From an uncultured Lentisphaeria bacterium (lineage in GTDB: Bacteria > Verrucomicrobiota > Lentisphaeria > JABSQK01 > JAJFLO01): DNA of 32,000 nt. The stretch spans positions 930,001 through 962,000 of the forward strand of contig OX638337.1 of NCBI GenBank assembly GCA_951812855.1, read 5' to 3'. This document shows positions 3,730 through 29,238 of the stretch, piece after piece. Under the pieces are notes generated by a model. The model did not search any database. It saw nothing but the letters and a program-made list of their open reading frames with translations, and had not been told where the DNA came from. The stretch's first letter is position 1. Each line of letters starts with the position of its first letter. The position numbers and the translations under genes are program-made.

Positions 3730-4140
3730 ATGAAAGAAAATAGAACTCAACTGGTTTCAAAATGGTCATCGGTACTGCTGTCCATAATCTTTATATGGAC
3801 GTTCAGTTTCCATGACTGGCACTATATCAGTGATGGTGAACACCACGATTGCGAGACTTGCAACACATTGACTGATGCATCCGATGTTTCTATTCAATGT
3901 GGTGGCCAGTGTAGTGATCCGGACCATCACCATCATGACCATTCCTCTACAGAACACTCTGACAATTGTATCGTATGCCAGGGGAACGGAGTTGACCATT
4001 GTTCACTGGCTCAGATTTCATTGTTATTGGTTTGCACTCCGCCGCCTTCTCCGGCCAGAAGCAGCCATCCTCAATCTTCAACTCATCTTTTCGACGCCTC
4101 CCCGCGGGGTCCTCCTGTACTGAACGGCTCTATAATATAA
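3730..4140 (+). CDS. His/Cys-rich small protein with an N-terminal hydrophobic anchor (putative periplasmic metal-binding protein)
   Basis: 136-aa ORF with a hydrophobic segment (SSVLLSIIFIWTFSF). Ligand-rich motifs follow: HDWH, EHHDCETC, CGGQC, DPDHHHHDH, CIVCQGNGVDHC. The tail is Pro/Ser-rich and ends ..SPRGPPVL. It is the first gene of a same-strand metal-transport cluster. There is no clear SD and several alternative-frame ORFs overlap it, so the frame call is tentative. Confidence 0.5.
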   Translation: MKENRTQLVSKWSSVLLSIIFIWTFSFHDWHYISDGEHHDCETCNTLTDASDVSIQCGGQCSDPDHHHHDHSSTEHSDNCIVCQGNGVDHCSLAQISLLLVCTPPPSPARSSHPQSSTHLFDASPRGPPVLNGSII

Positions 4141-7477: not shown

Positions 7478-7510
7478 TAAAAATGAAAAGGGCGGCCGCA
7501 TGGCCGCCCT
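7478..7510 (-). terminator. Rho-independent terminator downstream of the tRNA
   Basis: GGGCGGCC (7490-7497) pairs with GGCCGCCC (7502-7509) around a 4-nt loop. On the minus strand the stem is followed by TTTTCATTTTT. It lies immediately 3' of the tRNA end at 7514. Confidence 0.65.
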
Positions 7511-7513
7511 GTC

Positions 7514-7590
7514 TGGTAGCGGGGGCAGGATTTGAACCTGCGACCTTCAGGTTATGAGCCTGACAAGCTACCGGACTGCTCTACCCCGCA
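7514..7590 (-). tRNA. tRNA-Met (CAT), initiator type, with encoded CCA
   Basis: The 77-nt cloverleaf folds by hand: TGCGGGG-T-A-GAGC-AGTCCGGTA-GCTT-G-TCAGG-CTCATAA-CCTGA-AGGTC-GCAGG-TTCAAAT-CCTGC-CCCCGCT-A-CCA. Acceptor pairs 2-7 are identical to my recall of E. coli tRNA-fMet. Position 1:72 is unpaired (U:U) and A11:U24 is present; both are initiator marks. Only two of the usual three G:C pairs close the anticodon stem. Confidence 0.85.
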
Positions 7591-11071: not shown

Positions 11072-11124
11072 TAAAATACCTTCTCTAAAATTCAATACTC
11101 CGGAGTTGTATATAATTCATTTAT

Positions 11125-12121: not shown

Positions 12122-12541
12122 TTACACGCCATCAACCATTAGACATCCTCTAAATAAAATAATAAAAAATAATAAAATTATAAAAGGTAAAGCAATAATG
12201 AATCCACAACCGTATTTAAGAAAATCGGAAAACTCTGAATCTTTTTCCTGTTCTTTGAGAACAAGCCTTCCTGTTTTCAGATTCACTCTGCAAAATCTGC
12301 AAATAATTGCTTCCAGTTTTATAATTTCAGCACAATACGGGCACGCTCTCGTATCTTTTTTTGTCGGGATTTCGATGTCATCATCAACAATTTCAGCCTC
12401 AATAGGGTCATCAGCAACAGAAGAGCAAGGCTCCTCTATTTCCTCATTCTCTTTTTCCCTCCGGCCAGATGTCGAACTATTGCAGTTTGGACAATTTAAA
12501 TAACTTACAGGTATATATGCACCACACTCAAAACAATTCAT
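12122..12541 (-). CDS. Double zinc-ribbon protein with a C-terminal transmembrane anchor (hypothetical)
   Basis: 139-aa ORF with CFECGAYIPVSYLNCPNC and CPYCAEIIKLEAIICRFC (two CxxC...CxxC ribbons). An acidic linker joins them and the C-terminus is hydrophobic (GFIIALPFIILLFFIILF). It starts 21 nt after the thiolase stop on the same strand. Confidence 0.55.
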   Translation of the reverse strand: MNCFECGAYIPVSYLNCPNCNSSTSGRREKENEEIEEPCSSVADDPIEAEIVDDDIEIPTKKDTRACPYCAEIIKLEAIICRFCRVNLKTGRLVLKEQEKDSEFSDFLKYGCGFIIALPFIILLFFIILFRGCLMVDGV

Positions 12542-12562: not shown

Positions 12563-13606
12563 CTACCATTCCAATCCAAGCATTAAGGTGTTAAGACCAC
12601 TGCCAATTCCTAAAAATCCAACACGTTCACCCTCTTCTAAAATAGCTCTTTCTTCAGATAAAGCCGCCGTCAACGGTAAGGAGACAGTACCCATATTCCC
12701 CAGATATTCAAAGGTGCTGAGATCTTTTTCTTTCGGCATGTCTAAAGCATTTAATATTTGCTTCTGATGCTCCGCCCCTACCTGGTGACAGACAATTTTA
12801 TCAACATCTTCAGCATTATATTGAATCTCCTCTAAAAAATCGACCCAGGTACTCTTAAATAATTTGATACCATACTTTAGAACATTTGCTGAATCTGTTG
12901 TCATAAATGGATACATATGTCCATTTGATGAACGTTCTGTCCCCCACCGGCATAAATTATGAAATTCCGGTGCAGTACGGTGCATACCCCCAACTAATTT
13001 GTGACCTTGATTTTCAGAAAATGAATCATCTGTCAACAATACGGCAATAGAACCAGAGCCTCCAGTAAGTGTAGCCAGAGATGTCAGGAAAAAATCCATG
13101 GATTTTTCATCAAGCATCTTTGAAATCATTGTTTCATTGATTTCCCGTGCACTTTCACAGGAGACAACAAGACCCGCACGAATTTGTCCGAGTTCGATTC
13201 GATTCGCAATATCAAGCATTCCGTTGAGCACTCCCAGGCACGCATTTGAAATGTCGTATACAATCGTTTTAGAACTTGCACCCAGTACATGAGCAACCGG
13301 ACACGCGGTAGCCGGTTCGAAGTTTTCTCTGCACACTCCGGAATATACGAGAACTTCAATGTCAGAAATATCTAAATCTCCCTTGCTTAATGCATTCTGA
13401 GCTGCACTGATTGCTCCCTGTGACAATGGTGTATTCGGCTCCCACCATCGACGTTCGTAAATTCCAGTCAAAGTCTCTAATTGACCTGGTTGCATGTGAA
13501 GTGTCTCATACAAGCTTTCTAAACGTTCTTCAAGTTCCAGTGATGTAACGACAACGGGTGCTAATTCATATCCTATTGATCTAACATATACACGATTATA
13601 ACGCAC
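12563..13606 (-). CDS. Thiolase-fold condensing enzyme, OleA-like / KAS III (FabH) family
   Basis: 347-aa ORF with a GTG start at 13606, 4 nt after the upstream stop. It has a Cys-His-Asn triad: DISNACLG (Cys codon 13238-13240, aa 123), CHQVG, and GNMGTVSLP 30 residues after the His. It ends GIGSGLNTLMLGLEW. A Glu in FEPATA lies 26 residues before the Cys. HQV replaces the FabH HQAN. Confidence 0.8.
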   Translation of the reverse strand: MRYNRVYVRSIGYELAPVVVTSLELEERLESLYETLHMQPGQLETLTGIYERRWWEPNTPLSQGAISAAQNALSKGDLDISDIEVLVYSGVCRENFEPATACPVAHVLGASSKTIVYDISNACLGVLNGMLDIANRIELGQIRAGLVVSCESAREINETMISKMLDEKSMDFFLTSLATLTGGSGSIAVLLTDDSFSENQGHKLVGGMHRTAPEFHNLCRWGTERSSNGHMYPFMTTDSANVLKYGIKLFKSTWVDFLEEIQYNAEDVDKIVCHQVGAEHQKQILNALDMPKEKDLSTFEYLGNMGTVSLPLTAALSEERAILEEGERVGFLGIGSGLNTLMLGLEW

Positions 13607-13610
13607 AATT

Positions 13611-16022
13611 TTATCCTGAATATTTTAATGTAAATTGTTTCATTTCATAAATAATCCGTCCATCTACACTGAGAAAGCCATCGGCATAAATAATATGATT
13701 TTTCTCGTCAATTTCCATGATACAGGCTTCAACAGTCACTTGCTCATCAGTTGGTATGATTTGACCCCGATAAACCCAGCTATGCTCTTTATTTAATGCA
13801 ATATTCTCAAATGTTAACGTAGGTTTTTCTCCCCAGTGCTCAACTGCAAAGACTTGTAACAATTGGATAAATGATTCAAGGCCGAGTGATCCGGGACATA
13901 CCGGATCTTCGTAAAAGTGTGCCTTGAAAAACCACTCATCAGGATTCACGTTCTTTATGCCCCTGATAAATCCTTTCCCTGCGGGACCGCCATCCTTAAC
14001 AAACAAACTGACGTGATCAATCATCCGGAGCATTTCGTCTGGAAACGGTTTAGATTCAGGAAACGGGAATGACGATCCGCGAGCGATTTCCTGTTCGTCT
14101 GGAACATAAGGTTTTGCACCGATTATTCCGACCTGATCTGCCAGAGCAGCTTTTGTAAAGAAACCAAAATAAGTTTTTCCCCTATAGATTGACTGACCTT
14201 GGTTTTTAACATGAAAATCAAAATGCTGAATTACCATTCCGCCTGATGTAGAAACAGATGTAATTTTTATGTTAACAGATACTATACCGGCAGTTTCTTC
14301 AACGGGCAGATATTGAACCGCACTTCCTCCTAAATTACGAAATTTAAGATCAACATCGCTTGTAAGAGCTGATCCTATATAAGCGGCTAACCAACCACAC
14401 GGCTGCAACGCAATTTCCAGCAATACACTAAATGGCATTCCACTTACATTTGACTTAAAATACCATTCACCTGGAGGAACATCATATTCACCGGTAATCT
14501 CACCTCCCCCAACCATTTTCCATTGTTCCGCATCAATGGCGACAATCCGATCCAAAAACTGGTATGGTGGTCCCGGTAATCTGGCAATTTTACGATCATT
14601 ATCAAAAATTTTGTACTGCTCTCCAAATGCTTCCGAGGGTTTACCAATTGCAAACGCAAGAATTCGGTCCCGATCAAATATCGGAGCATTTGATTGCTGA
14701 ATCTGTTCCGGTTTATCATTGATTGTTTGCGAATTCCAGAGCGTTTCTAATTTTTCGCGGGTTAATCCCGTCAGTCGAACTGACATATCCGTTATTTCAA
14801 CGATCGGCTTACCATCAGCAAACATTAATGCATCAACTATGGTATACGGTTCCGGACGATATCCCAGTTCCTTAACAGATATTTCGTAAATCACCTTCTC
14901 TGTCGATTGCAAAACCTGTCCCCGACATTTTAACCGTCCTTTAATTCCAGTTACCGGTTCGCATACGGCATCTGATTTTTCCCCTATCCATCCTATTCTC
15001 ATCAGGTAAACTCGCAGGGTATGTAAACAGCATTCATACATCAACGTCCCCGGCATGACTTTATCATCCACGAAATGACATGTTAAGAACCAGTCATCCG
15101 GATGAATATCTGCCTCTCCTTTGATTAATCCTAATCCGAATCGTCCACCCTTCGGATTCAATTCTAAGATACGATCAACCAATTTCATTTTACCAGCAGG
15201 AAGGGTTAAGGGATCATTGAGACTGATTCCTGAAAATAAGTGTCCGAAACATCCTTCAAAATTGCCGTTTCTCAAAGCAGCAATCTGGTCATCACTGTAA
15301 GATTCCACGACCATCGGTACAAATTCTGTCCAATCATCGGGAACAATTCCCTTTACTTTCTTTTTCTGAAACTCTGTTTTAATTATCCCCTTACCTGCAT
15401 CAAGTTCTTTTTGAGTAAAGAAGCCCGCACATCCGTTCTCCATTGTCAACAAGGGTTTACCATCAACAGTACCTTCGAAATTGAATCGAAATAAATACGT
15501 GTTACCCTGCTTAAAAAAGTGATCTATTTTAATATCGTAATGAATCACTCTTCCGGGTCCCGGCAATGAACTGTGAAACGTAACTTCTGCATCCAGTAAC
15601 CGATAAACGGCGAATCCCTTAGACTCAAAATCAATTCCAAGATAACCCGATAAAAAGAGATCTGCCTGCCCGGCTTCAACAGCAATACATGTTGGAATCC
15701 GGCCATTGTCCAAATACCACGAATTTGGATGGATATCATGCTCGGTAACAACCCGTCCAGATGTCATTGATCGCACTTCACCATTAATTTCCATTATACG
15801 ATCTACCAGCATCAGCGGTTCATCAGGCAGCCGTACCCGAGTGGGGTAGGAATCAACGTCATTAAATTCCGGGCCCAATACTTTTCCTATAGATCCAATT
15901 GCGAATTCCATGCACATCTCTCGGTCCAGTACAGGAACAATTTCCTCCCGCTGATCCGAAAAACTACTATTGTTAGATTCATCGGCCACATTATTAGACA
16001 TTTGTTCGCTAAGATCAGGTGT
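13611..16022 (-). other. PfaC-like domains: two FabA-type dehydratase/isomerase units, each preceded by a pseudo-DH hot-dog
   Basis: DWFLTCHFVDDKVMPGTL (His codon 15075-15077, aa 1835) and EWFFKAHFYEDPVCPGSLG (His codon 13917-13919, aa 2221). The preceding pseudo-DH segments begin LDREMCMEFAIGSIGKVLG and FDRDRILAFAIGKPSEAFG. Confidence 0.8.
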
Positions 16023-19000
16023 CGTATCGAAATTTGCCGGTGATGATGAATTTTTTAATTGTTCCAGTAACTGCTGAGAAATTTCTTCTCCACCATTACG
16101 GTTGGCAATCATCCCGAGCAATTGCATCTGATATGAAATAGTCGATGAAATAGTCTTCGACAATTGATTTGAAAAATCAAGATACTGCTGATGAGCGTTT
16201 ATTTTCTCTTCTTCCGAGCTGATCATATGCTGAATTACGGGATCAGAAATATCAGAGGAATTTTGCCTATATTCTAAAGGTTCACTCGGTACTGGAACTT
16301 TCTCTTTTAAAATAGGTGCAGATACAGTCATTTCCGGAAAATCCGGAATTTTAAATTCACCGGTATCAGTTGATACTGTAATATATTCAGCCGGATTTAA
16401 TTCTGATACATCCTGATGTTCTAAAACATTTGTATCGTGTCCATATAAATTTGATAAATCAACAGGAGAACGTTCCGCAATAAGATTTGCTAATAGACGC
16501 AAAATTGCGACGATACTGTCCTGTCCATGATAACAGACTGATCTGACCATATGTGGCCGATCCTTTAAAATGCTGGAAATCATTCGAGTACATGAGACTC
16601 CCGGGCCTATTTCGATGAACAACCGCACCCCATCTTTGTATGAGTTTTCAATTAAACCCGGAAAATTCACTTTTGTCAATGCCTGTGCCTGAATAGAATC
16701 TGAAACTCTGGCACTGCTGATTGGATAACTCTTTTCCCAGGCCATACTGTAAAATCGGATATGCTCAGGTTTGCCCGTTTTCAATGTATGAAATTCCCGA
16801 TATTCATTTTCAATGGCTTTTGCAACCTCACAATGAACGGTTGGTGCCCCATAGATAGGCAGAAATCGACATCCCAGGGATTTCACAACATCTTCTACCT
16901 GATCATTATCTCCGCCGATGACACACTCATCCGGAGTATTTACGATCAATAAATACACTCTGTCTTTTTTGCTAATCACTTTCTCCACTTGCTGAGGTGA
17001 ACAGTCAATCATACCAATTGTCCACGAAACGTCTTCTTCATTCGGAACATTCCATGATTTTCGAACAGTACGACATTCTCCGACTAATTCATTTGAGAAT
17101 ATTGGTGATGCGTTCATTCGTCGAATCATTTCGTCACGATCATTCCAGGCACCCAGAGCAACGAGCCCTGATGATTCTCCCAGGCTATAACCAATCATAG
17201 CATCCGGCTTAACACCAAAATATCGAACAATATCACTGATCGCTGTGCCAATAAACACTTGTCCGGTTATCATGGCTTTGTGATTCTTAAAGGCATCACA
17301 ACCCGTTTTGTCATACCAGAAATAATCGGGTAATAATTGATCATGCAAAAATTCATTTTCGGTATCCTGTTTATGGAATATTTCCGGCCAGGCCGCTGAT
17401 AAATCTCGTCCCATTCCCCGAAAATGATTCCCAAAGCCGGGAAAAACAAATGCAAGCCGGCCCGATTTTCCAAGCGGTTTCGGATTAAAGAAAATTTGTT
17501 CAATCTCATCAGGTCTCCAGGAATCATCATCTATATTTTCCAATGCCTTATTTATCAGCGTAAACAGCTCTGATTGATTCTTTGCCAGAATTGTTAATCC
17601 CAGTTTCTCTTTTATTTGTGTTCTATATTTTGCCCACCATTTCCTTGCCCAGTATTCGATGCTATATGAATTATCGTTACTCGTTATGAATTCTCTCAGT
17701 TCAATTAATCGATTACTTAAATCAAGATTAGTATTTCCTTCAATCGCAAATATTGCTGCTGACCTGGCACCCAGAGGCTGATAACGATCTCCATTAACAA
17801 GAGACGGATTTAACTTTTCATATCCTTCAAGTATGACATGAGTACAATTTCCATCCATACTGAAACAGCTGACTCCTGATCGCCGCGGTCCGTTTACTCT
17901 GTTACGTAACCAAAATTGTGAGGCTTTTGGAAACACAAATCCTCTTTTTTCAAGATCTGTATTGCTTGAATCAACATTTCTTAATGGTGGCAGCATTTCC
18001 TGATAAAGACACAAACACACTTTGACTATCGACGCCAATCCCGCTGCAGCGCCAGTATGTCCAATATCTGATTTTACACTATTAAGAAAACAGGAAAAAT
18101 CACTGTTCTTCCCGCTAAAAAGATCCAGTAAAGCGGAACATTCCATGTCATCTTCGGGGGGATATCCACTCCCGTGTGCTTCAAGTAATTGAAGGGAATC
18201 AGGATCGATTCCAGATTCTGTATATGCTCTGCTAAACGCAGTTTTATACGCGTTAGAAGATGGAACAAGGGTATTAAAATCAGGACCGGCTGCAGTACCA
18301 ATTCCTCTAATTACTGAATAGATTCTATTTCCATCTCTTTCAGCATCGTCAAGTCGTTTTAATATTAAAGCAGCAGCACCTTCTCCGACAACAGTACCGT
18401 CTGCGTTGGCATCAAATGGTTTTAATAATGATTGATTTGAAAATGAGCGGTCCGCGTGTGTATTAATTAAAGATCGGATATCCCCGGCAAGATCTACAGC
18501 ACCGACAAGTGCCTGATTTATCTCTCCATTTTGTAATGCATGACACGCAACGTCCAATGCATGTATTCCCGAACTCTCTTCACTTGAAATTGTGTGGCTT
18601 GGACCACCCACACGAAACTCTCTGGCGATTCGACTGGCAACAATACCGCCTAAAGCTCCCATCGTCCGGTCTGCATTCAACGGGGGACCTGCAGCATTCC
18701 TCATTTTATCGAGCAATTCATTAAATTCACTTTCAGAGAGTTCTGAACCATTACGTTTACAGTAATCATTGAGTTGATTATATAAGGCCCACCTGAAATG
18801 AAAATTAGTGGTACACAAATCCAAACCCAACCCTATAAATACTCCTGTATCCAGCCCATCCTTATCATCATAATCTGCATCCTGAAATGCCTCATCAGCA
18901 GCAAGCAGCATTACCAGTTGTTGTGGTAACATTTCCTTGAGTTCGTTTGGTGGAATGCGATATTTCCCAATCTGGATATTTAACTGATCGATAAAATAAC

Positions 19001-20579
19001 CTTGAAATGACGACTGATCATATCCTGCCGTCTTAAACCACCTGCTCTCCAAAGCCCCCCACCATTGACGATTGAAATCTGAAGTCTTTGTATTATCCCC
19101 GCCTAATACTCTTTCCTGAAACTCTCTCAGGTTTTTCCAAGGTCCGAAATAAGTGCCAAGGCCAACAATAGCAATTGGTACCTGAGCATTATCTTTTTGT
19201 TTTGATTTTCTCGATTTTTTATGCCTCTTTACCGAAGGGAACCATTCTTCAACAATAACATGGGCATTGATACCCCCAAAACCAAAGGCATTAACAGCTG
19301 CCCTTCTTGGAGAATCCCCATCTTTACGCAACCATTTTTCACTCTTTTTGAGGACCTGAAATTGTGAATCATCGATATCAAAATCCGGATTCGGTGTTTG
19401 AAAATTTGCGGTTGGCGGTAACGTTTCATTTTTTATCGATAGCAATACTTTAATCAAACCTGCAGCACCGGCACCCGTTAGTAAATGACCTACATTTGAT
19501 TTAACTGAACCGATAACACAGGGATTCTCTCTTTTGGGAGCTCTGTCCCATAAACGGCATAAGCTGTCAAATTCTACACGATCCCCCAGTGGCGTGCCGG
19601 TTGCATGGCATTCAATCAGATCGATGTCCCATGGATTCAGTTTGGCCTGTTCATATGCAGGCTTCATTGACCGTAATTGACCTTCAGAATCAGGAGCTAA
19701 GAGATTGCCTTCAATATCATTTGATAGACCAATACCTTTTATTACTCCATAAATTGTATCCTCCGCCTGTATTGCATCATCTAATCGTTTTAGGACAACT
19801 ATCCCGGCACCTTCACCAACAATTAACCCGTCACCCCGTGCATCAAACGGTGTACATTGTCCTTTTACTGACAATGCATGAAGCTGCGAAAATCCCATTT
19901 GGGTATATAACGAATCTGCACGTGATACACCTCCAGTCAACATTGCATCCGCCCGCCCCGCCTGCAGTTCATCAACTGCGAGTTTCAATGCGTATAAAGA
20001 CGATGCACATGCTGCGTCCAGCGTATAGGTCCCCCCCCCTAATCCTAAAGATTTTGCAAGTATGCCTGCAGGTAATCCGGTTACATATCGATTAATCGAA
20101 TTGTTTGGACATCCACAATTATTAACGTTTAACTGAGGAATTTTCTCAAAAAATGTTTTACCCAAAATTTCCAGTGCTTGTGCAGATGATTTCTCTGTAG
20201 GCAATGCGATGTTGCCGATTACAATGCCTGCTCTCCTAAGATCTAATGAATCGGTTTTGCAATCTTTAAATGCATTTCTGCCAGCGTGCAGAACATAGTG
20301 ATTGAGTAAATCAAGTGATGATAAAAAGGCAGGATTGATATCCAGACCGGCAATATCCAATGAAAAGTTTTCTATAAAACAACTTCGAGTTGAATATACT
20401 TTGTCTGGTTTTACTCCGGATTTATCATATAAAACATCGGAATCAAGTATCCACCGCCCTTTTGGAACGTCCTTATTGGCATCGTAACCGTTAAGAATGT
20501 TATTCCAAAATTTCTCAAGAATGAGGGCTTCGGGGAAAATGCCACCAATTCCAACAATTGCTATTGGTATATCATTCAT
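13611..20579 (-). CDS. pfaC: PfaC-like PUFA/secondary-lipid synthase subunit: KS-CLF-AT-(pseudoDH+FabA-type DH)x2
   Basis: 2322-aa ORF; its domains are listed separately. The start lies 2 nt after the pfaA-like stop. Confidence 0.9.
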   Translation of the reverse strand: MNDIPIAIVGIGGIFPEALILEKFWNNILNGYDANKDVPKGRWILDSDVLYDKSGVKPDKVYSTRSCFIENFSLDIAGLDINPAFLSSLDLLNHYVLHAGRNAFKDCKTDSLDLRRAGIVIGNIALPTEKSSAQALEILGKTFFEKIPQLNVNNCGCPNNSINRYVTGLPAGILAKSLGLGGGTYTLDAACASSLYALKLAVDELQAGRADAMLTGGVSRADSLYTQMGFSQLHALSVKGQCTPFDARGDGLIVGEGAGIVVLKRLDDAIQAEDTIYGVIKGIGLSNDIEGNLLAPDSEGQLRSMKPAYEQAKLNPWDIDLIECHATGTPLGDRVEFDSLCRLWDRAPKRENPCVIGSVKSNVGHLLTGAGAAGLIKVLLSIKNETLPPTANFQTPNPDFDIDDSQFQVLKKSEKWLRKDGDSPRRAAVNAFGFGGINAHVIVEEWFPSVKRHKKSRKSKQKDNAQVPIAIVGLGTYFGPWKNLREFQERVLGGDNTKTSDFNRQWWGALESRWFKTAGYDQSSFQGYFIDQLNIQIGKYRIPPNELKEMLPQQLVMLLAADEAFQDADYDDKDGLDTGVFIGLGLDLCTTNFHFRWALYNQLNDYCKRNGSELSESEFNELLDKMRNAAGPPLNADRTMGALGGIVASRIAREFRVGGPSHTISSEESSGIHALDVACHALQNGEINQALVGAVDLAGDIRSLINTHADRSFSNQSLLKPFDANADGTVVGEGAAALILKRLDDAERDGNRIYSVIRGIGTAAGPDFNTLVPSSNAYKTAFSRAYTESGIDPDSLQLLEAHGSGYPPEDDMECSALLDLFSGKNSDFSCFLNSVKSDIGHTGAAAGLASIVKVCLCLYQEMLPPLRNVDSSNTDLEKRGFVFPKASQFWLRNRVNGPRRSGVSCFSMDGNCTHVILEGYEKLNPSLVNGDRYQPLGARSAAIFAIEGNTNLDLSNRLIELREFITSNDNSYSIEYWARKWWAKYRTQIKEKLGLTILAKNQSELFTLINKALENIDDDSWRPDEIEQIFFNPKPLGKSGRLAFVFPGFGNHFRGMGRDLSAAWPEIFHKQDTENEFLHDQLLPDYFWYDKTGCDAFKNHKAMITGQVFIGTAISDIVRYFGVKPDAMIGYSLGESSGLVALGAWNDRDEMIRRMNASPIFSNELVGECRTVRKSWNVPNEEDVSWTIGMIDCSPQQVEKVISKKDRVYLLIVNTPDECVIGGDNDQVEDVVKSLGCRFLPIYGAPTVHCEVAKAIENEYREFHTLKTGKPEHIRFYSMAWEKSYPISSARVSDSIQAQALTKVNFPGLIENSYKDGVRLFIEIGPGVSCTRMISSILKDRPHMVRSVCYHGQDSIVAILRLLANLIAERSPVDLSNLYGHDTNVLEHQDVSELNPAEYITVSTDTGEFKIPDFPEMTVSAPILKEKVPVPSEPLEYRQNSSDISDPVIQHMISSEEEKINAHQQYLDFSNQLSKTISSTISYQMQLLGMIANRNGGEEISQQLLEQLKNSSSPANFDTTPDLSEQMSNNVADESNNSSFSDQREEIVPVLDREMCMEFAIGSIGKVLGPEFNDVDSYPTRVRLPDEPLMLVDRIMEINGEVRSMTSGRVVTEHDIHPNSWYLDNGRIPTCIAVEAGQADLFLSGYLGIDFESKGFAVYRLLDAEVTFHSSLPGPGRVIHYDIKIDHFFKQGNTYLFRFNFEGTVDGKPLLTMENGCAGFFTQKELDAGKGIIKTEFQKKKVKGIVPDDWTEFVPMVVESYSDDQIAALRNGNFEGCFGHLFSGISLNDPLTLPAGKMKLVDRILELNPKGGRFGLGLIKGEADIHPDDWFLTCHFVDDKVMPGTLMYECCLHTLRVYLMRIGWIGEKSDAVCEPVTGIKGRLKCRGQVLQSTEKVIYEISVKELGYRPEPYTIVDALMFADGKPIVEITDMSVRLTGLTREKLETLWNSQTINDKPEQIQQSNAPIFDRDRILAFAIGKPSEAFGEQYKIFDNDRKIARLPGPPYQFLDRIVAIDAEQWKMVGGGEITGEYDVPPGEWYFKSNVSGMPFSVLLEIALQPCGWLAAYIGSALTSDVDLKFRNLGGSAVQYLPVEETAGIVSVNIKITSVSTSGGMVIQHFDFHVKNQGQSIYRGKTYFGFFTKAALADQVGIIGAKPYVPDEQEIARGSSFPFPESKPFPDEMLRMIDHVSLFVKDGGPAGKGFIRGIKNVNPDEWFFKAHFYEDPVCPGSLGLESFIQLLQVFAVEHWGEKPTLTFENIALNKEHSWVYRGQIIPTDEQVTVEACIMEIDEKNHIIYADGFLSVDGRIIYEMKQFTLKYSG
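16530..17492 (-). other. PfaC-like domain: PfaB-type acyltransferase
   Basis: LAFVFPGFGNHFRGMGRDL; IGYSLGESSG (Ser codon 17184-17186, aa 1132). It has GYSxGE rather than the GHSxG/AFHS of malonyl transferases. Confidence 0.75.
17865..19190 (-). other. PfaC-like domain: chain-length-factor (KS-like, no active-site Cys)
   Basis: IAIVGLGTYFG. The KS-equivalent motif reads TISSEESSG; the position aligned to Cys is the Glu codon at 18576-18578. EAHGSGYPPED and NSVKSDIGH are retained. Confidence 0.75.
19245..20573 (-). other. PfaC-like domain: ketosynthase (KS)
   Basis: IAIVGIGGIFP; TLDAACASS (Cys codon 20007-20009, aa 191); ECHATGTPLGD; GSVKSNVGH. Confidence 0.85.
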
Positions 20580-20581
20580 TC

Positions 20582-21478
20582 CTAAGAAACAGTATGCAAG
20601 ACAGGTTCTAATTTATTTTTATTAAAGGCTTTATATAAAGATTTATCCTGAATACAACAATAATCTTCGATCTTCGCAATAATTAAGCCTCTGCTATCCT
20701 GAAACTCAATATCCGCATGGATTGAAGATGCGACTTTATCCGTAATTTGAATTACGATTCGCATTCCGTCCCCTGGAAAATCACTTTGGAACTGCTTGTA
20801 ACTTCCAATAGACACAGGTAATGAGGGAGTATCATCTTCTTCAATACTCCACAAAATCATTAATTGGAAACTGACATCTAATACAAGTGGGTCAGATAAC
20901 CACTTTTGCCTTAACGGTTTGTTAATCCAATCTTTAGGTAATGAGGCTGATTGACTCCATCCAATCATTCCCTTTGTTGAAATTCCATCTATTCGGTCAA
21001 TTCCCTGGAAAAGTTTTCCATGGAAGAGTTTATTATCACTGTAAAAATCATTATCATGTGGATAATCTTCCAGCTTTGTTTCCTTTATCTGCGAGGCAAC
21101 CTGCTGATATTTCACGCATAGCAAGACATCAGCTTCAGCATGGACAACTTCATTTTCATCTGCAACCCGACATAATTGGATTGGAACAATAAACTGATCA
21201 TTATCCTTCTGAATTTTTGCAGATTTCAGACGAATCGTGACTTCCTCTCCATTAGAAATATCGACCCGTGAGTAAATTTTAAACTGGTCGAGTCCTTTAA
21301 ATCGTAAACCGGGATTTCCATGGATAGCACTGTGTCCCATCCACTCAATCATCATCGACATTGGCAGAACACCTTTTCCATTAAATGTATGAGATTCTAA
21401 AAATGGATAATCATCAATTGTCAATTTTCGGTCCAGCACGGTTGAATACGTATGAGCCTGTGATGATTGTTTTCGTTG
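20582..21478 (-). other. PfaA-like domain: PKS-type dehydratase
   Basis: HxxxGxxxxP motif in LESHTFNGKGVLPMSMMIEW (His codon 21389-21391, aa 2069). Confidence 0.75.
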
Positions 21479-24400
21479 TTTTACCTGTGTGGTTATCTTC
21501 GTATTCGGGCCGAAAACAACGATTTCCGCCGGATGACGACCGCCATTTAAGCTGATTTCCTTTACAAGTAAATCGCCGCCAGCCTTTAACGGTATGAGAC
21601 CAATATTCTCCTGTTCGAATATTGTTTTCAATTCAGGCGTTACCATTCCTCCATTCCAGGGTCCCCAATTTACAGAAACCACTCTGCAATTTCTGCGCTC
21701 TAACGATTGCTGTTGAGCTATTTTATTCAGAACTTCATTTGCGACAGCATAATCTATTTGTCCTTTCCTCCCGTATCGTCCGGTCGATGAAGAAAACATT
21801 GCAATAAATTTGAGATCTTCATTTTTCAGTGCTGCGAGTAATGCTAACTGACCAGCCACCTTTGTCGAATAAACTAAATCAAATTGCTCCTCTGTTTTAT
21901 CTTCTATAAGCCGATCTGCAAGGACTCCTGCACCATGAATTAAACCGCGAACAGGTCCAAAATCTTTCTTAATTTCTTTGACCACATTCGATACTTCTTG
22001 TTTATTCCGGATATCAACAGATCGGTAAATAACAGTGGATCCTTCTGCCCTAAAACGCTCAAGATTATTTAAAACCTCCCTATTGTTTATAATTGATTGA
22101 TATTCCGCCTGAACCTCTTTCGGCAACATTTTCTTTTGGGAATGACCGATTATTCCACGTTTAATTGCACCCTCATCTGCCAATGATTTCAACCATTCCG
22201 GTTCAACAGCCGGCTCAGGACTCCGACCTAATATCGCCAGGGCAGGCTGCCATTTTTTTACTAATGCCATAGTGCTTTCCGCTGTAACTCCCCGGGCACC
22301 TCCGGTAATAATCACCACATCGTCTTTACTCAACGACAGTGTCGATACTTTTTTGTCTGAATTTGCTGATAACAACTCTAATCCGATACTGCCATTTTGA
22401 GAAACACCGACTTCGACAGGCCCTTCGCAGAATAATTCATCGGCAATTCGTTGACTAATAGTTGCAGCACTTTTAGTACTTACATCATAATCAATGGCTT
22501 TACATTTAACTTCAGACCATTCATGATGTGCAGTTTTTGACAATCCCGCCAATCCTCCTGACATTGGATCACTTTTACCATTCAAGCCATCGATACCGAA
22601 CTTACCGTCCAACCGTGATACGGTAACAAATAGGGATTCATCGTTACGCCCCGCTTCTCGTAAGGCTTTAGAACAATTTTTTAACAACGTAAATGCATTT
22701 CTCAGGATTCGGTCTTCTGTGCCTGATCGAGGTGATATAATGATCAATCCATTCAGTTTCGATGGATATTCCAAATTGTCAATTGAGCTTAGATCAACTA
22801 ATTTCGTTTGAAACCCTCGTTTTATCAGCTCTTTGCTCAGCCGATTAGAAATCCCATTTTTCCCATCATTCGTGATCCAGAACACGGAACCTCTTGTAAA
22901 GTTAATCTTCCGTCTTTCTGAAGCCGGATCTAAATTTACCAGTTGAAGTTCAAAACGTTCAACAAACTCATCATTCTCGTTTTCGCTGGATTGATCCTGA
23001 TTTGAAACACTGTCAGAATGTACAGGCACAGAATCAACAACTCTCTGAGTATCATTATTTTCTCCAAGAAACTCGACAATCTGGTTTAATGTTCGTAATA
23101 CCCCGAGCTGCTCCGGTCCCACGCCAGGTGAATCTGGAAGTTTTTCCTGGATGGCCGATAAAATTTCTACGCGTTTGATAGAATCAATTCCCAAGTCTGA
23201 ATCCAACCCCATATCCAATGCAAGCATATCAACCGGATATCCTGTTTTATCAGCGACAACGTCCAGCAGCACAGACGCAATATGTTCGTTGTCCGCAGAA
23301 CACGTGGATTTTGTCACAGTGGGTGATTGTACAGTTGATTCTCCCTCTGGTTCATTTTGTGTTAAATAATCAACGATTTCGCCCAATGTCCTGAGAACAC
23401 CAAGATGCTCCTGCCCAACCTGAGGAGAATCAGGCAATTTCTCGTGTAAATCAGACAATATTTCAACACGTTTAATGGAGTCAATACCCAAATCCGAATC
23501 CAGCCCCATTTCCATTGATAACATGTCTTTCGGGTAACCGGTTTTTTCTGAAACTATGTTTAACAAAACAGACTCTGCCATACTGCGACTTGTGTTTATT
23601 TGCGATGATTCGTTTGAATCAGTTGTAACAACAGTTTCACTCACTTCAGTGGTTGAATTGACCGCTAAAAATCCAACAATTTCATCTAATGTTCGCAACG
23701 TACCCAATTGTTCAGGACCAATTTTTGGTGCTTCGGGAATCTTATCCTGAAGATCTGATAAAATTTCGACACGTTTAATTGAATCAACTCCTAAATCTGA
23801 ATCCAGTCCCATATCCATGGTTAACATGTCTTCTGGATAACCTGTTTTTTCTGAAACAATTGAAATAAGAACAGAAGCAATGTCTACCTTATTACTATTG
23901 TTGGTTCCAGACTTGGATTGAACAGAAACGTCTGTAACAATTACAGAATTTTCTTCACTTTTCCTGGAATTTGCACCTAAAAATTCTACAATTTCCTCTA
24001 ATGTTCGGAGTGTTCCAAGATGTTCCGGGCCTGCAGCTGGAGAATCAGGCAGAGCCTCCTGCAACGATGACAATATCTCAACACGCTTTATTGAATCGAT
24101 TCCTAAATCTGAATCCAACCCCATATCAAGAGTCAACATTTCAACCGGATATCCAGTCTTCTCAGATACAACACTTAACAATACTTGTTTAATGCGGTTA
24201 TTGTTTGTAGACGTTTGCGATGGTGTGGAAGAATCAGGTTTTACTACAGGTTCAGGATCAGGTGTATTTACTGTAACAGGTTTACCTTGATTTACAGCAG
24301 AACCGGCACTTGCTGTCGGTGGGGATTCGACACTCTTTGAACTGCCGGTTGACATCGTCGAACCGACTACCCCGGGGGGGTGCTTATTGAGCGTATGCTG

Positions 24401-27400
24401 TTGTTGAGAAATTAAAGCATTCAATGTTTGCTGAGCCTCTTGCTGGCCTTGTAAAAACTGACTATGCAATTTTGATGTATTCGTTTGAAGTTGTTGCAAT
24501 GCCACCATATTTTGCTGGGTTAACTTTAATGTCTCTATTAGTGCTTTATTGTCCATTGGGTTATCTAAATGAGTATTCCCGACAGAGATTGATTTATTCA
24601 TTGTATTCATAGTTTTAACATCGTTTAATTGTCCTGTATCTGAGGCATGAATATTTGGCCGGGAACCTCTTTCAAATGTGTCAGTACTCGATATGGGCAG
24701 GTTGGCTGTTTGTTTGGGTTTAGGTGGCTTCACCGATTTTGGTTCAAAACTATTTGCACCGCAAAGTGCCACAACGAAACCGGATTTCTCTTCGGGTTCC
24801 AGGTTCACTCCTTCATCCCATTGATCAAGGTGAACGGCATACCCCATTGATGCTAACTGGGCTAATACCATAGCTAAACTAAGAACACCTGAACGTCTTC
24901 CCCTCGATGAATCCAGAGCTAAAGAAGTACATTCCCTGTTTTTCAATATAGAATTTATTAATCCACTTAACTGATTGCCGGGACCAACTTCTAAAAATGT
25001 TCGTACCCCAGACGTATACATATTTTCAATCTGCTGAATAAATTCAACCGGCTTCGAGATTTGCTCTGCAAGAATTTGACGGGCCTTGTCAACAGCCTTG
25101 GGATAGGGCTTAGCCGTCGTATTTGCATATACCGGAATTTTGCCTGTGTTAAAAGAAATTTTCTCAAGTACTTCCCTAAACGGTTTACTCGCATGAGAAA
25201 CCCATTCGCTATGGAATGCAGCTGATACGTTTAATTTCTTATTTGTAATATTTTTTTGTGTAAAAATCTTTGCTGCTTTTTCAATTTCGTTTAATGCTCC
25301 GGATAAAACAGTTTGTTCGGGTGCATTTTTATTTGCTATAACAAGGTTTAAGCCTTCTTTTTTAATCAGATCCAAGGCTTGTTTTACCGAACTTCGGACA
25401 GCCAACATTGCACTTTTAATTTCTTCAGTTTCAGCCATTAGCTGACCTCGAACATTTGAGAGCTTATGCAAGGCTTTTTCGCGAATTTTCCCGGCAACAC
25501 ACAGTGCCGTCAATTCTCCATAACTGTGTCCTGCAACTGCATCGGGACTAATAGAAAAATGCTTAAAAATATTTGCCACACCTAAACTAACCGCACCAAT
25601 TGCAGGTTGGACATTTTTAGTGTCTCTGAGTGCTGATTCGTGCTTTAACTGAGCTTCTTCTGTGAATTCTGACTGAGGATAAATCAAATCACTCAGCTTA
25701 ATATTTGACAATGAATCCTTAAATTCAGAAAAGACATTATTTGCATCTGAAAGGGCTTTCTGAAACTGCGGAAATTTACATGCCAAATCCCTTAACATAC
25801 CAAGATATTGTGCACCCTGGCCCGGAAAAATAAATCCAAGCTTCCCTATCTCTTTTTCGCTGAAAAAATAAATTCCATCGGGTGTATTCCAATTGTCTCC
25901 ACTATCATTTTTCTGTAATTTGGAAATAATAGATGTGAAAGATTTACTAATATCTGTGCGTTGTTTCTCAATAACCATCATTAACCGGACTTTAGCATCT
26001 GTCTTAAATTCTTTTCTTGACAGAGCAGATTTTCTTCTCAATTGCTTCCAATTAAGATCACGTGGCCACGCCTTAATTTTGTCGATTAGTTTTTCTTTAT
26101 TTTCTGCTGAAAAACCAAGAATCTGTACATCACCGTCCCAGGTAATTTCCTGTTTTTCAGATTTGGCCTCTTCCATAACACAGTGAAAATTACTGCCGCC
26201 AAATCCAAATGCACTTACAGCAGCTCTCCTGGGATGATTCGGGTTGGGCAACCACGGTTGCTGTTCGCAGTTAATATAGAATGGGGTTTCACCTGATTCG
26301 ATAAGTTCTAATGGTTTGTCAACCTTTATTGTTGGGGGAATTACTTTATGATATAGAGCCAAAGCTGCTTTAATAACACCGGCCACTCCGGCCGCGGCTT
26401 TAGTATGGCCAATTTGAGATTTCACCGAACCAAGAGCACACCAGGTTCCCTGGGATTTATATGAACGATAAATGTCTGAAAGTGCTTTTACTTCTACAGC
26501 ATCACCAACTTTTGTTCCCGTTCCATGGGCTTCTACTAATTCGATAGTATCCGGGTTAATATCCGCCAATTCATAAGCTTCCCGTAAACAGCGGCTCTGG
26601 CCTTCACTGCTTGGGGCATAGACCGCATTGCCTTTACCATCACTTGATGAACCAATACCTTTTATGACCGCATAGATTTTATCGTTATCCCGTTCTGCAT
26701 CATCCAGGCGTTTCAGGATTACTGCACCTAAACCCTCTCCCAGAATCGTGCCATCTGCATTTGCAGCAAATGGTTTGGAATTACCTGTCGGTGATAACGC
26801 GGGAGTTTTACTAAAACACATATACATGAAAATATCGTTAAAGGTATCCATTCCCCCGGTAACGACCATATCAGCACGTCCTGCAGCCAACTCTAAACTC
26901 GCCAGGTGAAATGCGGTGAGCGAACTTGCACACGCAGCGTCAACAACACAATTTGTACCCCCCAGATCAAACCGATTTGCAATTCGGCCGGCTGCGACAT
27001 TACCCAACAACCCGGGAAATGAGTTTTCCTGCCAATCAACATAGGAATCGGAAATCCGGTCCATAACATCATTTTTTGTATGATCATCAACACCAGCAGC
27101 CTCAAGTGCATTTCGCCAAACTGGAAATCCTAATCGAGTCCCTAACGTCACCACAAGTTCAAGAGCACCCGTAATGCCTAATATCACACTGGTATTTTTA
27201 CGATTGAAGTCGCTCTTATCCCCATATCCCGCATCATCAAGTGCCTGTTTAGCCACGACCATACCTAATAATTGTGTCGTATCAATTGAATCAATATCAC
27301 GGGGAGAGATACCATATTCCATTGGATTAAAATCGACCCTGGATATGAATCCGCCTCGACGGGCATACGTGTGATCTCGTTTTTGCGGATCTTTATTGTA

Positions 27401-27595
27401 ATAATCTTCCGGTCGCCAGTGTGTTTCCGGTATATCTGAAATCCCATCGACTTTATTTGTAATATTTGCCCAATATGCATCCGCAGTATCTGCTTTTGGA
27501 AACAAACATCCCATCCCTACAATTGCTAACGGAACTTGTTTGCTGGTTTTTGAAGCAGTTTTCTTCGCAGGGTTACGCGATGTTGTTTTTTTCAT
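20582..27595 (-). CDS. pfaA: PfaA-like PUFA/secondary-lipid synthase subunit: KS-AT-ACPx4-KR-DH
   Basis: 2337-aa ORF; its domains are listed separately. Its ATG overlaps the pfaD-like stop (ATGA, 27595-27592). Confidence 0.9.
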   Translation of the reverse strand: MKKTTSRNPAKKTASKTSKQVPLAIVGMGCLFPKADTADAYWANITNKVDGISDIPETHWRPEDYYNKDPQKRDHTYARRGGFISRVDFNPMEYGISPRDIDSIDTTQLLGMVVAKQALDDAGYGDKSDFNRKNTSVILGITGALELVVTLGTRLGFPVWRNALEAAGVDDHTKNDVMDRISDSYVDWQENSFPGLLGNVAAGRIANRFDLGGTNCVVDAACASSLTAFHLASLELAAGRADMVVTGGMDTFNDIFMYMCFSKTPALSPTGNSKPFAANADGTILGEGLGAVILKRLDDAERDNDKIYAVIKGIGSSSDGKGNAVYAPSSEGQSRCLREAYELADINPDTIELVEAHGTGTKVGDAVEVKALSDIYRSYKSQGTWCALGSVKSQIGHTKAAAGVAGVIKAALALYHKVIPPTIKVDKPLELIESGETPFYINCEQQPWLPNPNHPRRAAVSAFGFGGSNFHCVMEEAKSEKQEITWDGDVQILGFSAENKEKLIDKIKAWPRDLNWKQLRRKSALSRKEFKTDAKVRLMMVIEKQRTDISKSFTSIISKLQKNDSGDNWNTPDGIYFFSEKEIGKLGFIFPGQGAQYLGMLRDLACKFPQFQKALSDANNVFSEFKDSLSNIKLSDLIYPQSEFTEEAQLKHESALRDTKNVQPAIGAVSLGVANIFKHFSISPDAVAGHSYGELTALCVAGKIREKALHKLSNVRGQLMAETEEIKSAMLAVRSSVKQALDLIKKEGLNLVIANKNAPEQTVLSGALNEIEKAAKIFTQKNITNKKLNVSAAFHSEWVSHASKPFREVLEKISFNTGKIPVYANTTAKPYPKAVDKARQILAEQISKPVEFIQQIENMYTSGVRTFLEVGPGNQLSGLINSILKNRECTSLALDSSRGRRSGVLSLAMVLAQLASMGYAVHLDQWDEGVNLEPEEKSGFVVALCGANSFEPKSVKPPKPKQTANLPISSTDTFERGSRPNIHASDTGQLNDVKTMNTMNKSISVGNTHLDNPMDNKALIETLKLTQQNMVALQQLQTNTSKLHSQFLQGQQEAQQTLNALISQQQHTLNKHPPGVVGSTMSTGSSKSVESPPTASAGSAVNQGKPVTVNTPDPEPVVKPDSSTPSQTSTNNNRIKQVLLSVVSEKTGYPVEMLTLDMGLDSDLGIDSIKRVEILSSLQEALPDSPAAGPEHLGTLRTLEEIVEFLGANSRKSEENSVIVTDVSVQSKSGTNNSNKVDIASVLISIVSEKTGYPEDMLTMDMGLDSDLGVDSIKRVEILSDLQDKIPEAPKIGPEQLGTLRTLDEIVGFLAVNSTTEVSETVVTTDSNESSQINTSRSMAESVLLNIVSEKTGYPKDMLSMEMGLDSDLGIDSIKRVEILSDLHEKLPDSPQVGQEHLGVLRTLGEIVDYLTQNEPEGESTVQSPTVTKSTCSADNEHIASVLLDVVADKTGYPVDMLALDMGLDSDLGIDSIKRVEILSAIQEKLPDSPGVGPEQLGVLRTLNQIVEFLGENNDTQRVVDSVPVHSDSVSNQDQSSENENDEFVERFELQLVNLDPASERRKINFTRGSVFWITNDGKNGISNRLSKELIKRGFQTKLVDLSSIDNLEYPSKLNGLIIISPRSGTEDRILRNAFTLLKNCSKALREAGRNDESLFVTVSRLDGKFGIDGLNGKSDPMSGGLAGLSKTAHHEWSEVKCKAIDYDVSTKSAATISQRIADELFCEGPVEVGVSQNGSIGLELLSANSDKKVSTLSLSKDDVVIITGGARGVTAESTMALVKKWQPALAILGRSPEPAVEPEWLKSLADEGAIKRGIIGHSQKKMLPKEVQAEYQSIINNREVLNNLERFRAEGSTVIYRSVDIRNKQEVSNVVKEIKKDFGPVRGLIHGAGVLADRLIEDKTEEQFDLVYSTKVAGQLALLAALKNEDLKFIAMFSSSTGRYGRKGQIDYAVANEVLNKIAQQQSLERRNCRVVSVNWGPWNGGMVTPELKTIFEQENIGLIPLKAGGDLLVKEISLNGGRHPAEIVVFGPNTKITTQVKQRKQSSQAHTYSTVLDRKLTIDDYPFLESHTFNGKGVLPMSMMIEWMGHSAIHGNPGLRFKGLDQFKIYSRVDISNGEEVTIRLKSAKIQKDNDQFIVPIQLCRVADENEVVHAEADVLLCVKYQQVASQIKETKLEDYPHDNDFYSDNKLFHGKLFQGIDRIDGISTKGMIGWSQSASLPKDWINKPLRQKWLSDPLVLDVSFQLMILWSIEEDDTPSLPVSIGSYKQFQSDFPGDGMRIVIQITDKVASSIHADIEFQDSRGLIIAKIEDYCCIQDKSLYKAFNKNKLEPVLHTVS
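21566..22918 (-). other. PfaA-like domain: ketoreductase (structural plus catalytic subdomains)
   Basis: VVIITGGARGVT Rossmann motif (about 22290-22320); SSSTGRYGRKGQIDYAVANE (catalytic Tyr context). Confidence 0.8.
23066..24208 (-). repeat. Four tandem ACP domains (coding repeat of about 300 nt)
   Basis: The motif GLDSDLG(I/V)DSIKRVEILS occurs four times. The phosphopantetheine Ser codons are at 24092-24094, 23780-23782, 23477-23479 and 23180-23182 (aa 1168, 1272, 1373, 1472). The core peptides are near-identical, but the DNA differs at many synonymous sites. Confidence 0.9.
24896..25813 (-). other. PfaA-like domain: malonyl-type acyltransferase
   Basis: FIFPGQGAQYLGM; AGHSYGE (Ser codon 25523-25525, aa 691); VSAAFHS. 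Confidence 0.85.
26186..27538 (-). other. PfaA-like domain: ketosynthase
   Basis: LAIVGMGCLFP; VVDAACASS (Cys codon 26930-26932, aa 222); EAHGTGTKVGD; GSVKSQIGH. Confidence 0.85.
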
Positions 27596-29238
27596 TTCAT
27601 TAATTCCTTAATCCGATGTTCAGTTAATGGAGAAGGATTCATTAGCTCCGACGATAATGATACGCCCTGATATCTAAGCGTATTCAAGCGGAGCTGTACA
27701 GCTGTACCGAAAAGTACATTCAGTGCAATCGTAACAACTCTTCGATTTTGATAATCTTCCAAAAATGTTCCTTTTACCCATTCGTTAAATGCCCCCATAG
27801 CGGGTCCGCACCAAATTTGATAATCAATCTTGCGATCGGGTACACCCGCATTAGCCCATTTAGATGACTGTCCAAGATATGATCTGAAGACTAACGCCAT
27901 TTGATGTTTTGAATCGTTCTCTGCCCGGATAAGCTGCTGAGGATCCCGCTCACGAAAAAAAGCCCTGGTATCGTTCCAAACTCCGTCAAGTGATTTTTTA
28001 AAGTAGCCCTTTTCCAAAGATTCCTTTTGATCAGGTGGTATTGCATTTAAACTTTTATATTTTCGATAGATATCATACAGCTTTGCCGCCCGCATTGCAA
28101 ACATTGTTCCACGTTTTAACACCTGAACTTTTACGCCCATTTCAAACATGTCAGCAGCCGGTGCCATTGTTATATCTGCCTGCTGAGCTTGTGATAACAT
28201 CTCTCGAACACTGTCAGACGTTCCAGCTTCAAGGGTACATTGGTTGATAGTTCCCACAACGATATACGCCGCTCCCATTGAAAAAACTGCAGCAGCGGAT
28301 GCAGGTGAGGCAATGCCGCCACCGGCACCAACACGAATCGTTGATGAATAATTGTATTTTTTCTGAATATCATCACGTAATGCAATAATAGTTGGAAACA
28401 ATGCCAATGCCTGCTGATTATCTGTATGACCGCCAGAATCAGCTTCCACAGTAATATCCTGTGCCATAGGGATCGTTGATGCCATTTTGGCCTGTTCCTG
28501 TGTTATATCGCCTGTGCGAACTAATTCATCTAAAATTTTATCTGGAGGCGGACTGAAAAACTTAGAGGCAACTTCAATTCGGGAAATTTTAGCGACAATT
28601 CGATTCGGAGTAATTATTTTACCTGAAGAGTCCTGATGAATTCCATGAACTCGATAACGGACAACAGAAGGGGTGAGTCCTAAAAATGCTGATGCTTCTA
28701 CTAAATTAATATCGTTTTCAATATAGAAATCCACAATGGCTGATTCTAAATCCTGCTCGTTGGGGCTGTGAATCAAATTAAAACCGGAAGTAAATTTGTC
28801 TTTGAATTTCCTCAAATAGTCACTCGCTGTTTTTACCTTGGAAATGGGTAGCCCGGCGGCTCCAAAAAAGCCCAGCATCCCGCCTTTTCCCATCGCTTCA
28901 ACAATTTCCACAGATCCGATACCGTTTGCCATCGACCCAGAAACATAAGGGTACTTTAAACCATAGTCTCTGCAGAAGGTCGCGTCTCCTAAATCTGTTA
29001 TTGCACACCGGGGAACATAGCCGATTATTGAATAACCGTTTTTATCATCATTTATTTCACCCAAACATACCTTCCCGCCTTTTCCAACCCCCACAGAACC
29101 TTCTTTTTCGATTATAACAACCGGGTGGTTTATTTTATAAATTGCTTCTTTAAGATGATTTTCATCTATTGAAGGCAGTGAACCGTCTGGATACCAGCGA
29201 CCTAAAGATGAAGAGGCAGACAGTGATTTAGTTGTCAT
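27592..29238 (-). CDS. pfaD: PfaD-family trans-acting enoyl reductase (FMN, nitronate-monooxygenase-like fold)
   Basis: 548-aa ORF with YPYVSGSMANGIGS, GMLGFFGAAG, NLIHSP, VEADSGGHTDN, VGAGGGIASP and MAPAADMFEMGVKVQVLKRG, the typical PfaD signature blocks by recall. No SD precedes the ATG at 29238-29236. Confidence 0.9.
   Translation of the reverse strand: MTTKSLSASSSLGRWYPDGSLPSIDENHLKEAIYKINHPVVIIEKEGSVGVGKGGKVCLGEINDDKNGYSIIGYVPRCAITDLGDATFCRDYGLKYPYVSGSMANGIGSVEIVEAMGKGGMLGFFGAAGLPISKVKTASDYLRKFKDKFTSGFNLIHSPNEQDLESAIVDFYIENDINLVEASAFLGLTPSVVRYRVHGIHQDSSGKIITPNRIVAKISRIEVASKFFSPPPDKILDELVRTGDITQEQAKMASTIPMAQDITVEADSGGHTDNQQALALFPTIIALRDDIQKKYNYSSTIRVGAGGGIASPASAAAVFSMGAAYIVVGTINQCTLEAGTSDSVREMLSQAQQADITMAPAADMFEMGVKVQVLKRGTMFAMRAAKLYDIYRKYKSLNAIPPDQKESLEKGYFKKSLDGVWNDTRAFFRERDPQQLIRAENDSKHQMALVFRSYLGQSSKWANAGVPDRKIDYQIWCGPAMGAFNEWVKGTFLEDYQNRRVVTIALNVLFGTAVQLRLNTLRYQGVSLSSELMNPSPLTEHRIKELMK

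Follow-up and report, generated by a model that had tools for sequence, protein, structure and literature searches.

We analysed a 32,000-nucleotide stretch of DNA (hereafter, the window) from an uncultured Lentisphaeria bacterium of the Verrucomicrobiota (GenBank assembly GCA_951812855.1, contig OX638337.1, positions 930,001 to 962,000 of the forward strand), in which four tightly packed genes, pfaD-pfaA-pfaBC-oleA, occupy 16.7 kb of uninterrupted open reading frames (ORFs) on the minus strand. The operon opens with pfaD (27592..29238), which encodes a trans-acting enoyl reductase (ER) of 548 aa, and continues with a pfaA-like gene (20582..27595; 2337 aa, KS-MAT-ACPx4-KR-DH') and a pfaBC fusion (13611..20579; 2322 aa, KS-CLF-AT-(pseudoDH+FabA DH)x2). 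It ends in a gene with a GTG start (12563..13606; 347 aa) that we assign to oleA, a predicted head-to-head Claisen condensing thiolase. The junctions, read directly from the sequence, consist of a 4-nt overlap between pfaD and pfaA (ATGA at 27595-27592, which holds the ATG of pfaA along with the TGA of pfaD), a 2-nt gap between pfaA and pfaBC (20580-20581), and a 4-nt gap between pfaBC and the start of oleA (13607-13610).

The first three proteins carry the domains of an iterative Pfa synthase. PfaD matched the family model TIGR02814 (pfaD_fam) with 628.6 bits (cutoff 449) over residues 79-517, together with the Pfam families NMO and FabD_helical_ins, and PfaA scored 1695 bits on TIGR02813 (cutoff 1010). 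The Pfam domains of PfaA are KS (residues 22-425), AT (588-885), four copies of PP-binding, KR (1761-1981) and PS-DH (2184-2314), and by motif inspection its DAACASS (Cys222), HGTGT and GHSYG (Ser691) motifs are intact, as are four ACP sites of the form LGxDSIKRVEI (Ser1168, Ser1272, Ser1373 and Ser1472). In PfaBC, Pfam recognized two KS domains, an AT (1044-1334) and four FabA-like stretches, while residues 1039-1378, the AT region, reached 112 bits on pfaB_fam, which is under the cutoff of 144. Inspection of its motifs located Cys191 in the first KS and GYSLG in the AT, and since a Glu aligns to the catalytic Cys of the first KS in the second KS-like domain, the latter is read as a CLF. No AGPAT/acyltransferase family appeared among the Pfam matches of the 2322-aa PfaBC, whose second FabA domain ends at residue 2313, and profile searches of the four operon proteins and the rest of the window returned no AGPAT, TE (thioesterase) or phosphopantetheinyl transferase (PPTase) domain. 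Type I Pfa synthases are defined by the pfaBC fusion, occur in Geobacter, Pelobacter, Desulfuromonas and Gemmata, and have been proposed to feed the ole pathway (PMC3098273). Judging from its own pfaBC fusion, and from pairwise identity and synteny with Geobacter sp. AOG1, the synthase of the window is Type I-like in the scheme of Shulse & Allen. An earlier note on this DNA had described a Pfa-type megasynthase operon of four packed minus-strand ORFs with three junctions and a set of domain calls, lacking a stand-alone pfaB, AGPAT and TE. Its coordinates hold exactly and so do the junctions on re-reading; the Pfam and NCBIfam profile searches support each domain call, the models for PfaD and PfaA score above their curated cutoffs, and none of the three functions reported as missing was found by profile searches of the four proteins or the remaining window.

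The product of the fourth gene, ORF4, is OleA, a Claisen enzyme of the thiolase superfamily, to judge from its family scores and conserved residues. It matched NF006720 over its full length with 463 bits (cutoff 285). This family is labelled '3-oxoacyl-ACP synthase III' in NCBIfam, as are its relatives in the PDB, and Pfam ACP_syn_III_C matches are present in ORF4. NF006720 is nevertheless the OleA family despite its name, because the crystallised OleA of Xanthomonas campestris (chain 3ROW, rebuilt from the alignment) scores 475 bits on it. On genuine FabH models ORF4 reached 83-103 bits against cutoffs of 249-292, and across ORF4 and X. campestris OleA together such models gave 83-129 bits. 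The top PDB matches of ORF4 were the X. campestris OleA entries 3ROW, 3S20, 4KU5, 5VXD and 6B2R, aligned end to end (E 2.5e-48); chains beyond the OleA group, mostly annotated as FabH, matched with E-values of 8e-21 or weaker. The catalytic residues Glu97, Cys123, His274 and Asn304 align to X. campestris OleA and are invariant in an alignment of 84 OleA sequences; their counterparts in the X. campestris enzyme we take to be Glu117, Cys143, His285 and Asn315. Several homologues with 61-64% identity are named 'acyl-CoA:acyl-CoA alkyltransferase' by JGI. A FabH/KAS III priming enzyme, a DarB/StlD-type ketosynthase and an HMG-CoA synthase were also considered for ORF4, and all were rejected on the family scores. 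The assignment would also clarify an annotation, in that what gene databases call '3-oxoacyl-ACP synthase III' is here OleA.

We scanned for ORF4 homologues with one genome per GTDB species, which gave 80 loci with 52-91% identity, and scored the neighbouring genes by tblastn, using as queries the window proteins and the OleB, OleC, OleD and PPTase of Geobacter sp. AOG1. The loci belong to Desulfuromonadales/Geobacter, Desulfobacterales, Verrucomicrobiota, Planctomycetota (Gemmataceae, Phycisphaerae) and Candidatus Uabimicrobium, and further to Elusimicrobia, Beta- and Gammaproteobacteria and Candidatus Xenobia; three of the loci that we fetched are from Gemmataceae, a family for which the C31:9 hydrocarbon is characteristic of all members (PMC7397252). 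The oleABCD genes have also been noted in freshwater Opitutae metagenome-assembled genomes (MAGs) (PMC5673642). Directly downstream of oleA lies oleB in 70 of the 72 species-level loci with room for it (in one, L052, the two genes overlap by 3 nt), and among the 55 loci that extend 5 kb or more beyond oleA, oleB-oleC-oleD is complete in 53. On the other side, pfaBC directly precedes oleA in 60-64 of the 72, and in a scan with ORF1 pfaA immediately followed pfaD on the same strand in nearly every JGI metagenome locus with room (45/46). A very widespread pfa-ole supercluster thus has as its standard traits the ER in first place, the AT after the CLF, and a condensing thiolase at the end. The earlier note had considered this layout unusual, a view that does not survive these counts, given also that the AT behind the CLF is simply the pfaBC fusion of Type I. 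The same order, terminal thiolase included, is found in a characterised hydrocarbon producer, Geobacter bemidjiensis, whose tandem array runs pfaD, A, B, C, then oleA, B, C, D, then pfaE, and which makes the C31:9 hentriacontanonaene (PMC4882568); this is the very finding that the note had named as refuting its claim. The note's placing of a Claisen-condensing thiolase in the off-loading position agrees with our family assignment, though it named the enzyme only as OleA/FabH-like and did not recognise OleA itself; because of this, it also missed the absence of oleBCD and pfaE described below.

Two variants of the supercluster were seen in the same scan. At two Candidatus Uabimicrobium loci (L050 and L064) the order is pfaA-pfaBC-oleA-oleB-oleC-oleD-pfaD, i.e. 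a rearranged supercluster with pfaD after oleD. At six loci from Thiotrichaceae and other gammaproteobacterial MAGs (L063, L067, L070, L079, L080 and L085), OleA is about 50 residues longer (a match of 1197 nt), and 1.3-2.5 kb separate oleA from oleB.

The locus does have one real oddity, in that oleBCD and pfaE either lie unlinked or have been lost, a state conserved in a verrucomicrobial lineage with a small genome. The same layout ending at oleA is found in the Verrucomicrobia MAG OFTM167 (92% identity for OleA, 84% for PfaBC) and in the JGI 3300021183 contig (83% for OleA), and a fourth contig, with 82% identity for PfaD, carries pfaD-pfaA-pfaBC. Among the 72 loci, the exceptions without oleB are only this lineage and Verrucomicrobia OFTM198. 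In the latter, an intact, lone OleA (L008, 10001-11044, JAJFLP010000080.1; 65% identity, 452 bits on NF006720) has no pfa or oleBCD genes within 10 kb on either side, its neighbours being multihaem cytochromes, a DUF1573 protein, PTS EIIA and dnaE. The ratio of nonsynonymous to synonymous substitution rates (dN/dS) was 0.037 for oleA, 0.065 for pfaBC, 0.065 for pfaA and 0.062 for pfaD (the last against the relative L092), at saturated dS of 1.3-1.7. The four operon genes are under strong purifying selection, and oleA is the most constrained of the neighbourhood. This lineage departs from the OleA family at 4 of 137 highly conserved columns (Lys71, G250F, A317S and C340T), and G250F and C340T are also present in the OleA of OFTM198.

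From the gene identities, the intact catalytic residues, the conservation and the synteny, all of which are observed, we conclude with good confidence that pfaD-pfaA-pfaBC-oleA is the front half of a pfa/ole supercluster, and that the following model probably applies as far as the condensation step. An iterative Pfa synthase, composed of the KS/CLF pair, the MAT and the embedded AT, the KR, the FabA-type dehydratase/isomerases and the trans-acting ER PfaD, would build a polyunsaturated acyl chain of medium length on the four tandem ACPs, possibly around C16 and, by analogy, 16:4n-3. OleA would then take two such chains directly from the carrier; their non-decarboxylative Claisen condensation would give a C32 2-alkenyl-3-keto acid. 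Under this proposal no thioesterase, PfaB or AGPAT is present because OleA itself does the off-loading. Allemann et al. described OleA as the link between the Pfa and Ole pathways, probably taking 16:4n-3 not from acyl-CoA but directly off the ACP domains of Pfa (PMC6463001). If the genome encodes OleD, OleC and OleB at another site, reduction of the acid, closure of a beta-lactone and decarboxylation would lead to a polyolefin of the C31:9 type; if they are absent, the acid would decarboxylate spontaneously to a ketone of the 31:8 type. We regard the olefin and the ketone endings as about equally likely, and it is the chain length, the direct hand-off from ACP to OleA and the final product that we infer.

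Several observations weigh against this model. The pathway at the locus is incomplete as seen: with the Geobacter sp. AOG1 queries, tblastn found no match to OleB, OleC, OleD or PPTase in the window, no oleB, oleC, oleD or Sfp-type PPTase gene lies in the roughly 8 kb past its high-coordinate end or the roughly 3 kb past position 1, and an ACPS domain is likewise absent from the window ORFs and the fetched flanks. Searches of a set of 5.8 billion proteins, cluster members included, with OleB and OleC queries from Desulfobacterales CSMAG_1531 (the reciprocal nearest outgroup) gave no match on a contig of 1.94 Mb (1,941,460 or 1,947,381 bp), the size of this genome, among the best 120 listed for each, a weak negative, as identities within these families are flat at 62-67% and an orthologue is easily missed. 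All 79 other sequences of the alignment, nearly all of them oleBCD-linked, have Lys71 of OleA, as do X. campestris OleA and L008; it is replaced by Asn in the window (codon at about 13394-13396, minus strand) and by Asp in the relatives, a change that may point to a different partner or substrate of OleA. Finally, the chain length and the double-bond pattern are not readable from the sequence.

The alternative that stands closest to the proposed model is a natural pfa plus oleA-only pathway, in which the lineage has lost oleBCD and makes a polyunsaturated C31 ketone of the 31:8 type. It is nested within the model above and differs in the last steps alone; in a variant of it, the product would be a beta-keto acid or, via an unrelated reductase, a beta-hydroxy branched acid. 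In its favour are the near-universal presence of oleB after oleA outside this lineage and OFTM198, the layout that stops after oleA in the window, OFTM167 and the JGI contig alike, the lack of any OleC or OleB match on a 1.94-Mb contig among those listed, the small genome, and the lineage-specific change at the otherwise invariant Lys71. An engineered equivalent is also on record, since a 31:8 ketone is what E. coli forms when given pfaA-E and oleA but no oleBCD, as the beta-keto acid decarboxylates spontaneously (PMC6463001). Set against this are the ease with which an OleB or OleC orthologue would be missed at such flat identities, and the fact that the PPTase, which the ACPs need in order to work, is not local either and must have its gene elsewhere; the pathway genes are therefore already dispersed in this genome. 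We also know of no natural ketone-producing organism that has OleA only, which counts against such a pathway here. On balance, we give it a real chance, yet one that stays below even. Should oleBCD truly be absent, the lineage would show that OleA alone can end a Pfa assembly line in nature, and would suggest polyunsaturated long-chain ketones as a bacterial lipid class and possibly a biomarker. A tentative proposition, somewhat less likely than not, is that the lineage naturally makes such a ketone, or some other derivative of the 2-alkenyl-3-keto acid, as its finished lipid; this would be the first equivalent in nature of the engineered pfa and oleA ketone pathway, and the loss of Lys71 in OleA could mark a changed partnership.

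Considerably less probable is a synthase of the myxobacterial or thraustochytrid type that makes eicosapentaenoic (EPA), docosahexaenoic (DHA) or arachidonic acid, or a similar polyunsaturated fatty acid (PUFA) for membranes, with the thiolase as an incidental neighbour. The order of ER, KS-AT-ACPn-KR-DH and KS-CLF-AT-DH2 is common to those systems, and PfaA exceeds the cutoff of a model named for omega-3 PfaA. Such a synthase would, however, be left here with no AGPAT, PfaB or thioesterase for release or transfer of its product, while oleA starts only 4 nt after pfaBC and is under tighter constraint than any gene around it; moreover, the nearest relatives all come with ole genes, and the examined organisms with this cluster type (Geobacter, Gemmataceae) make C31:9. 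We consider it very unlikely that ORF4 instead primes the Pfa synthase with an unusual starter unit, as a ketosynthase of the FabH type (KAS III) would. Its database annotation and the ACP_syn_III_C matches would suit that role, but its scores on FabH models fall far below their cutoffs and below the score on the model that contains OleA, it has the OleA-specific Glu (X. campestris Glu117), and its homologues are followed by oleB almost throughout. The least probable reading, to which we give hardly any credence, is a decaying pfa-ole remnant without a product, which would account for the missing oleBCD and PPTase at the locus but not for 16.7 kb of uninterrupted ORFs in a genome of 1.94 Mb, the intact state of all catalytic motifs, or dN/dS values of 0.04-0.07 across relatives at saturated dS.

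Downstream of oleA, on the same strand, follow a small zinc-ribbon protein, a prephenate dehydratase, a phosphoglucomutase (PGM)-family fusion of 1042 aa, a tRNA-Met and a strong terminator. The zinc-ribbon gene (12122..12541, minus strand; 139 aa) starts 21 nt past the oleA stop, and its product combines two zinc ribbons of the CxxC...CxxC pattern with an acidic linker and, at the C-terminus, a hydrophobic helix; its Pfam DZR match (4.9e-5) is below the cutoff. In all three relatives it sits in the same place, and its rate of evolution exceeds that of the neighbouring genes (65% identity in OFTM167, dN/dS 0.147). The gene is possibly co-transcribed with oleA and may belong to the system. The PGM fusion (7967-11095, minus strand; gene callers start it at 1034 aa) comprises a complete phosphoglucomutase/phosphomannomutase with four PGM_PMM domains in its N-terminal ~490 aa and a C-terminal part of ~540 aa for which Pfam gave no family at E<=0.1; the protein is 75% identical in OFTM167 and measures 1036 aa in the JGI contig. 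Directly downstream of it lies the tRNA-Met gene (CAT; 7514-7590, minus strand), and the Rfam scan returned tRNA only. A hairpin of 9 bp, 8 of them GC, with a T-run (7489-7510, minus strand) is the first terminator-like site downstream of pfa-oleA on that strand, and none was seen from oleA through to where the PGM-fusion gene ends, in a scan that performs at chance level, as did our promoter and terminator scans in general.

Further out, two ORFs on the plus strand (3730-4140, 136 aa; 4246-5664, 472 aa) lie upstream of a ZnuA / ABC-3 metal-uptake pair; neither has a significant Pfam family, and the 472-aa product has weak matches of the coiled-coil type only. The ~8 kb past the high-coordinate end carry yajC and secDF and, after these (L086, 13113-17178, beyond position 32000), genes of the menaquinone type, namely those for a UbiE-type methyltransferase, an isochorismate synthase (menF) and a MenD-like thiamine pyrophosphate enzyme (menD). 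The ~3 kb past position 1, available from a shorter alternative contig, hold an acyl-CoA-dehydrogenase-like fragment and a lactamase_B protein. The assembly ERZ18545485 includes several shorter alternative contigs of the region (atg000609l, atg002889l, atg002449l and atg002847l), and gene calling on one of them (L173, atg000609l) gives a PfaBC of 2330 aa rather than 2322 aa, a difference that suggests co-existing strain variants.

Compared with known systems, the operon resembles the myxobacterial pfa1-pfa2-pfa3 and the thraustochytrid synthases, which are likewise built from three genes, with the ER in first place and an AT following the CLF (PMC13311796). It differs from myxobacterial Pfa1-3 in that PfaBC is without a C-terminal AGPAT and OleA is attached, and in that its nearest relatives are ole-linked and not myxobacterial. 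With X. campestris OleA, the enzyme of the window shares a full-length alignment, the same NCBIfam family and the conserved Glu, Cys, His and Asn; the X. campestris enzyme, in contrast, uses saturated or branched acyl-CoAs derived from fatty acid synthase II, is encoded in an oleABCD operon, and has Lys where this lineage has Asn or Asp at position 71. In the Shewanella and Photobacterium systems (pfaABCDE plus oleABCD), a Pfa synthase likewise feeds OleA, with the acyl chain taken from the Pfa ACPs, but pfaB is separate, pfaD stands last, pfa and ole form separate operons, and the synthase also makes EPA or DHA. The E. coli ketone construct with pfaA-E and oleA has, PPTase aside, the gene content of the window, i.e. 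a Pfa synthase and OleA with no OleBCD. Closest of all is the Geobacter-type supercluster. There, oleB, oleC, oleD and a PPTase gene follow oleA, in place of the zinc-ribbon, prephenate dehydratase and PGM-fusion genes found here, while from pfaD to oleA the order, the orientation and the domain architectures are the same, and Geobacter sp. AOG1 shares with the window proteins an identity of 63% for OleA, 52% over the full length of PfaBC and 45% for PfaA. We place the operon in the pfa-ole hydrocarbon system, which is common, and not in a new layout of PUFA synthase.

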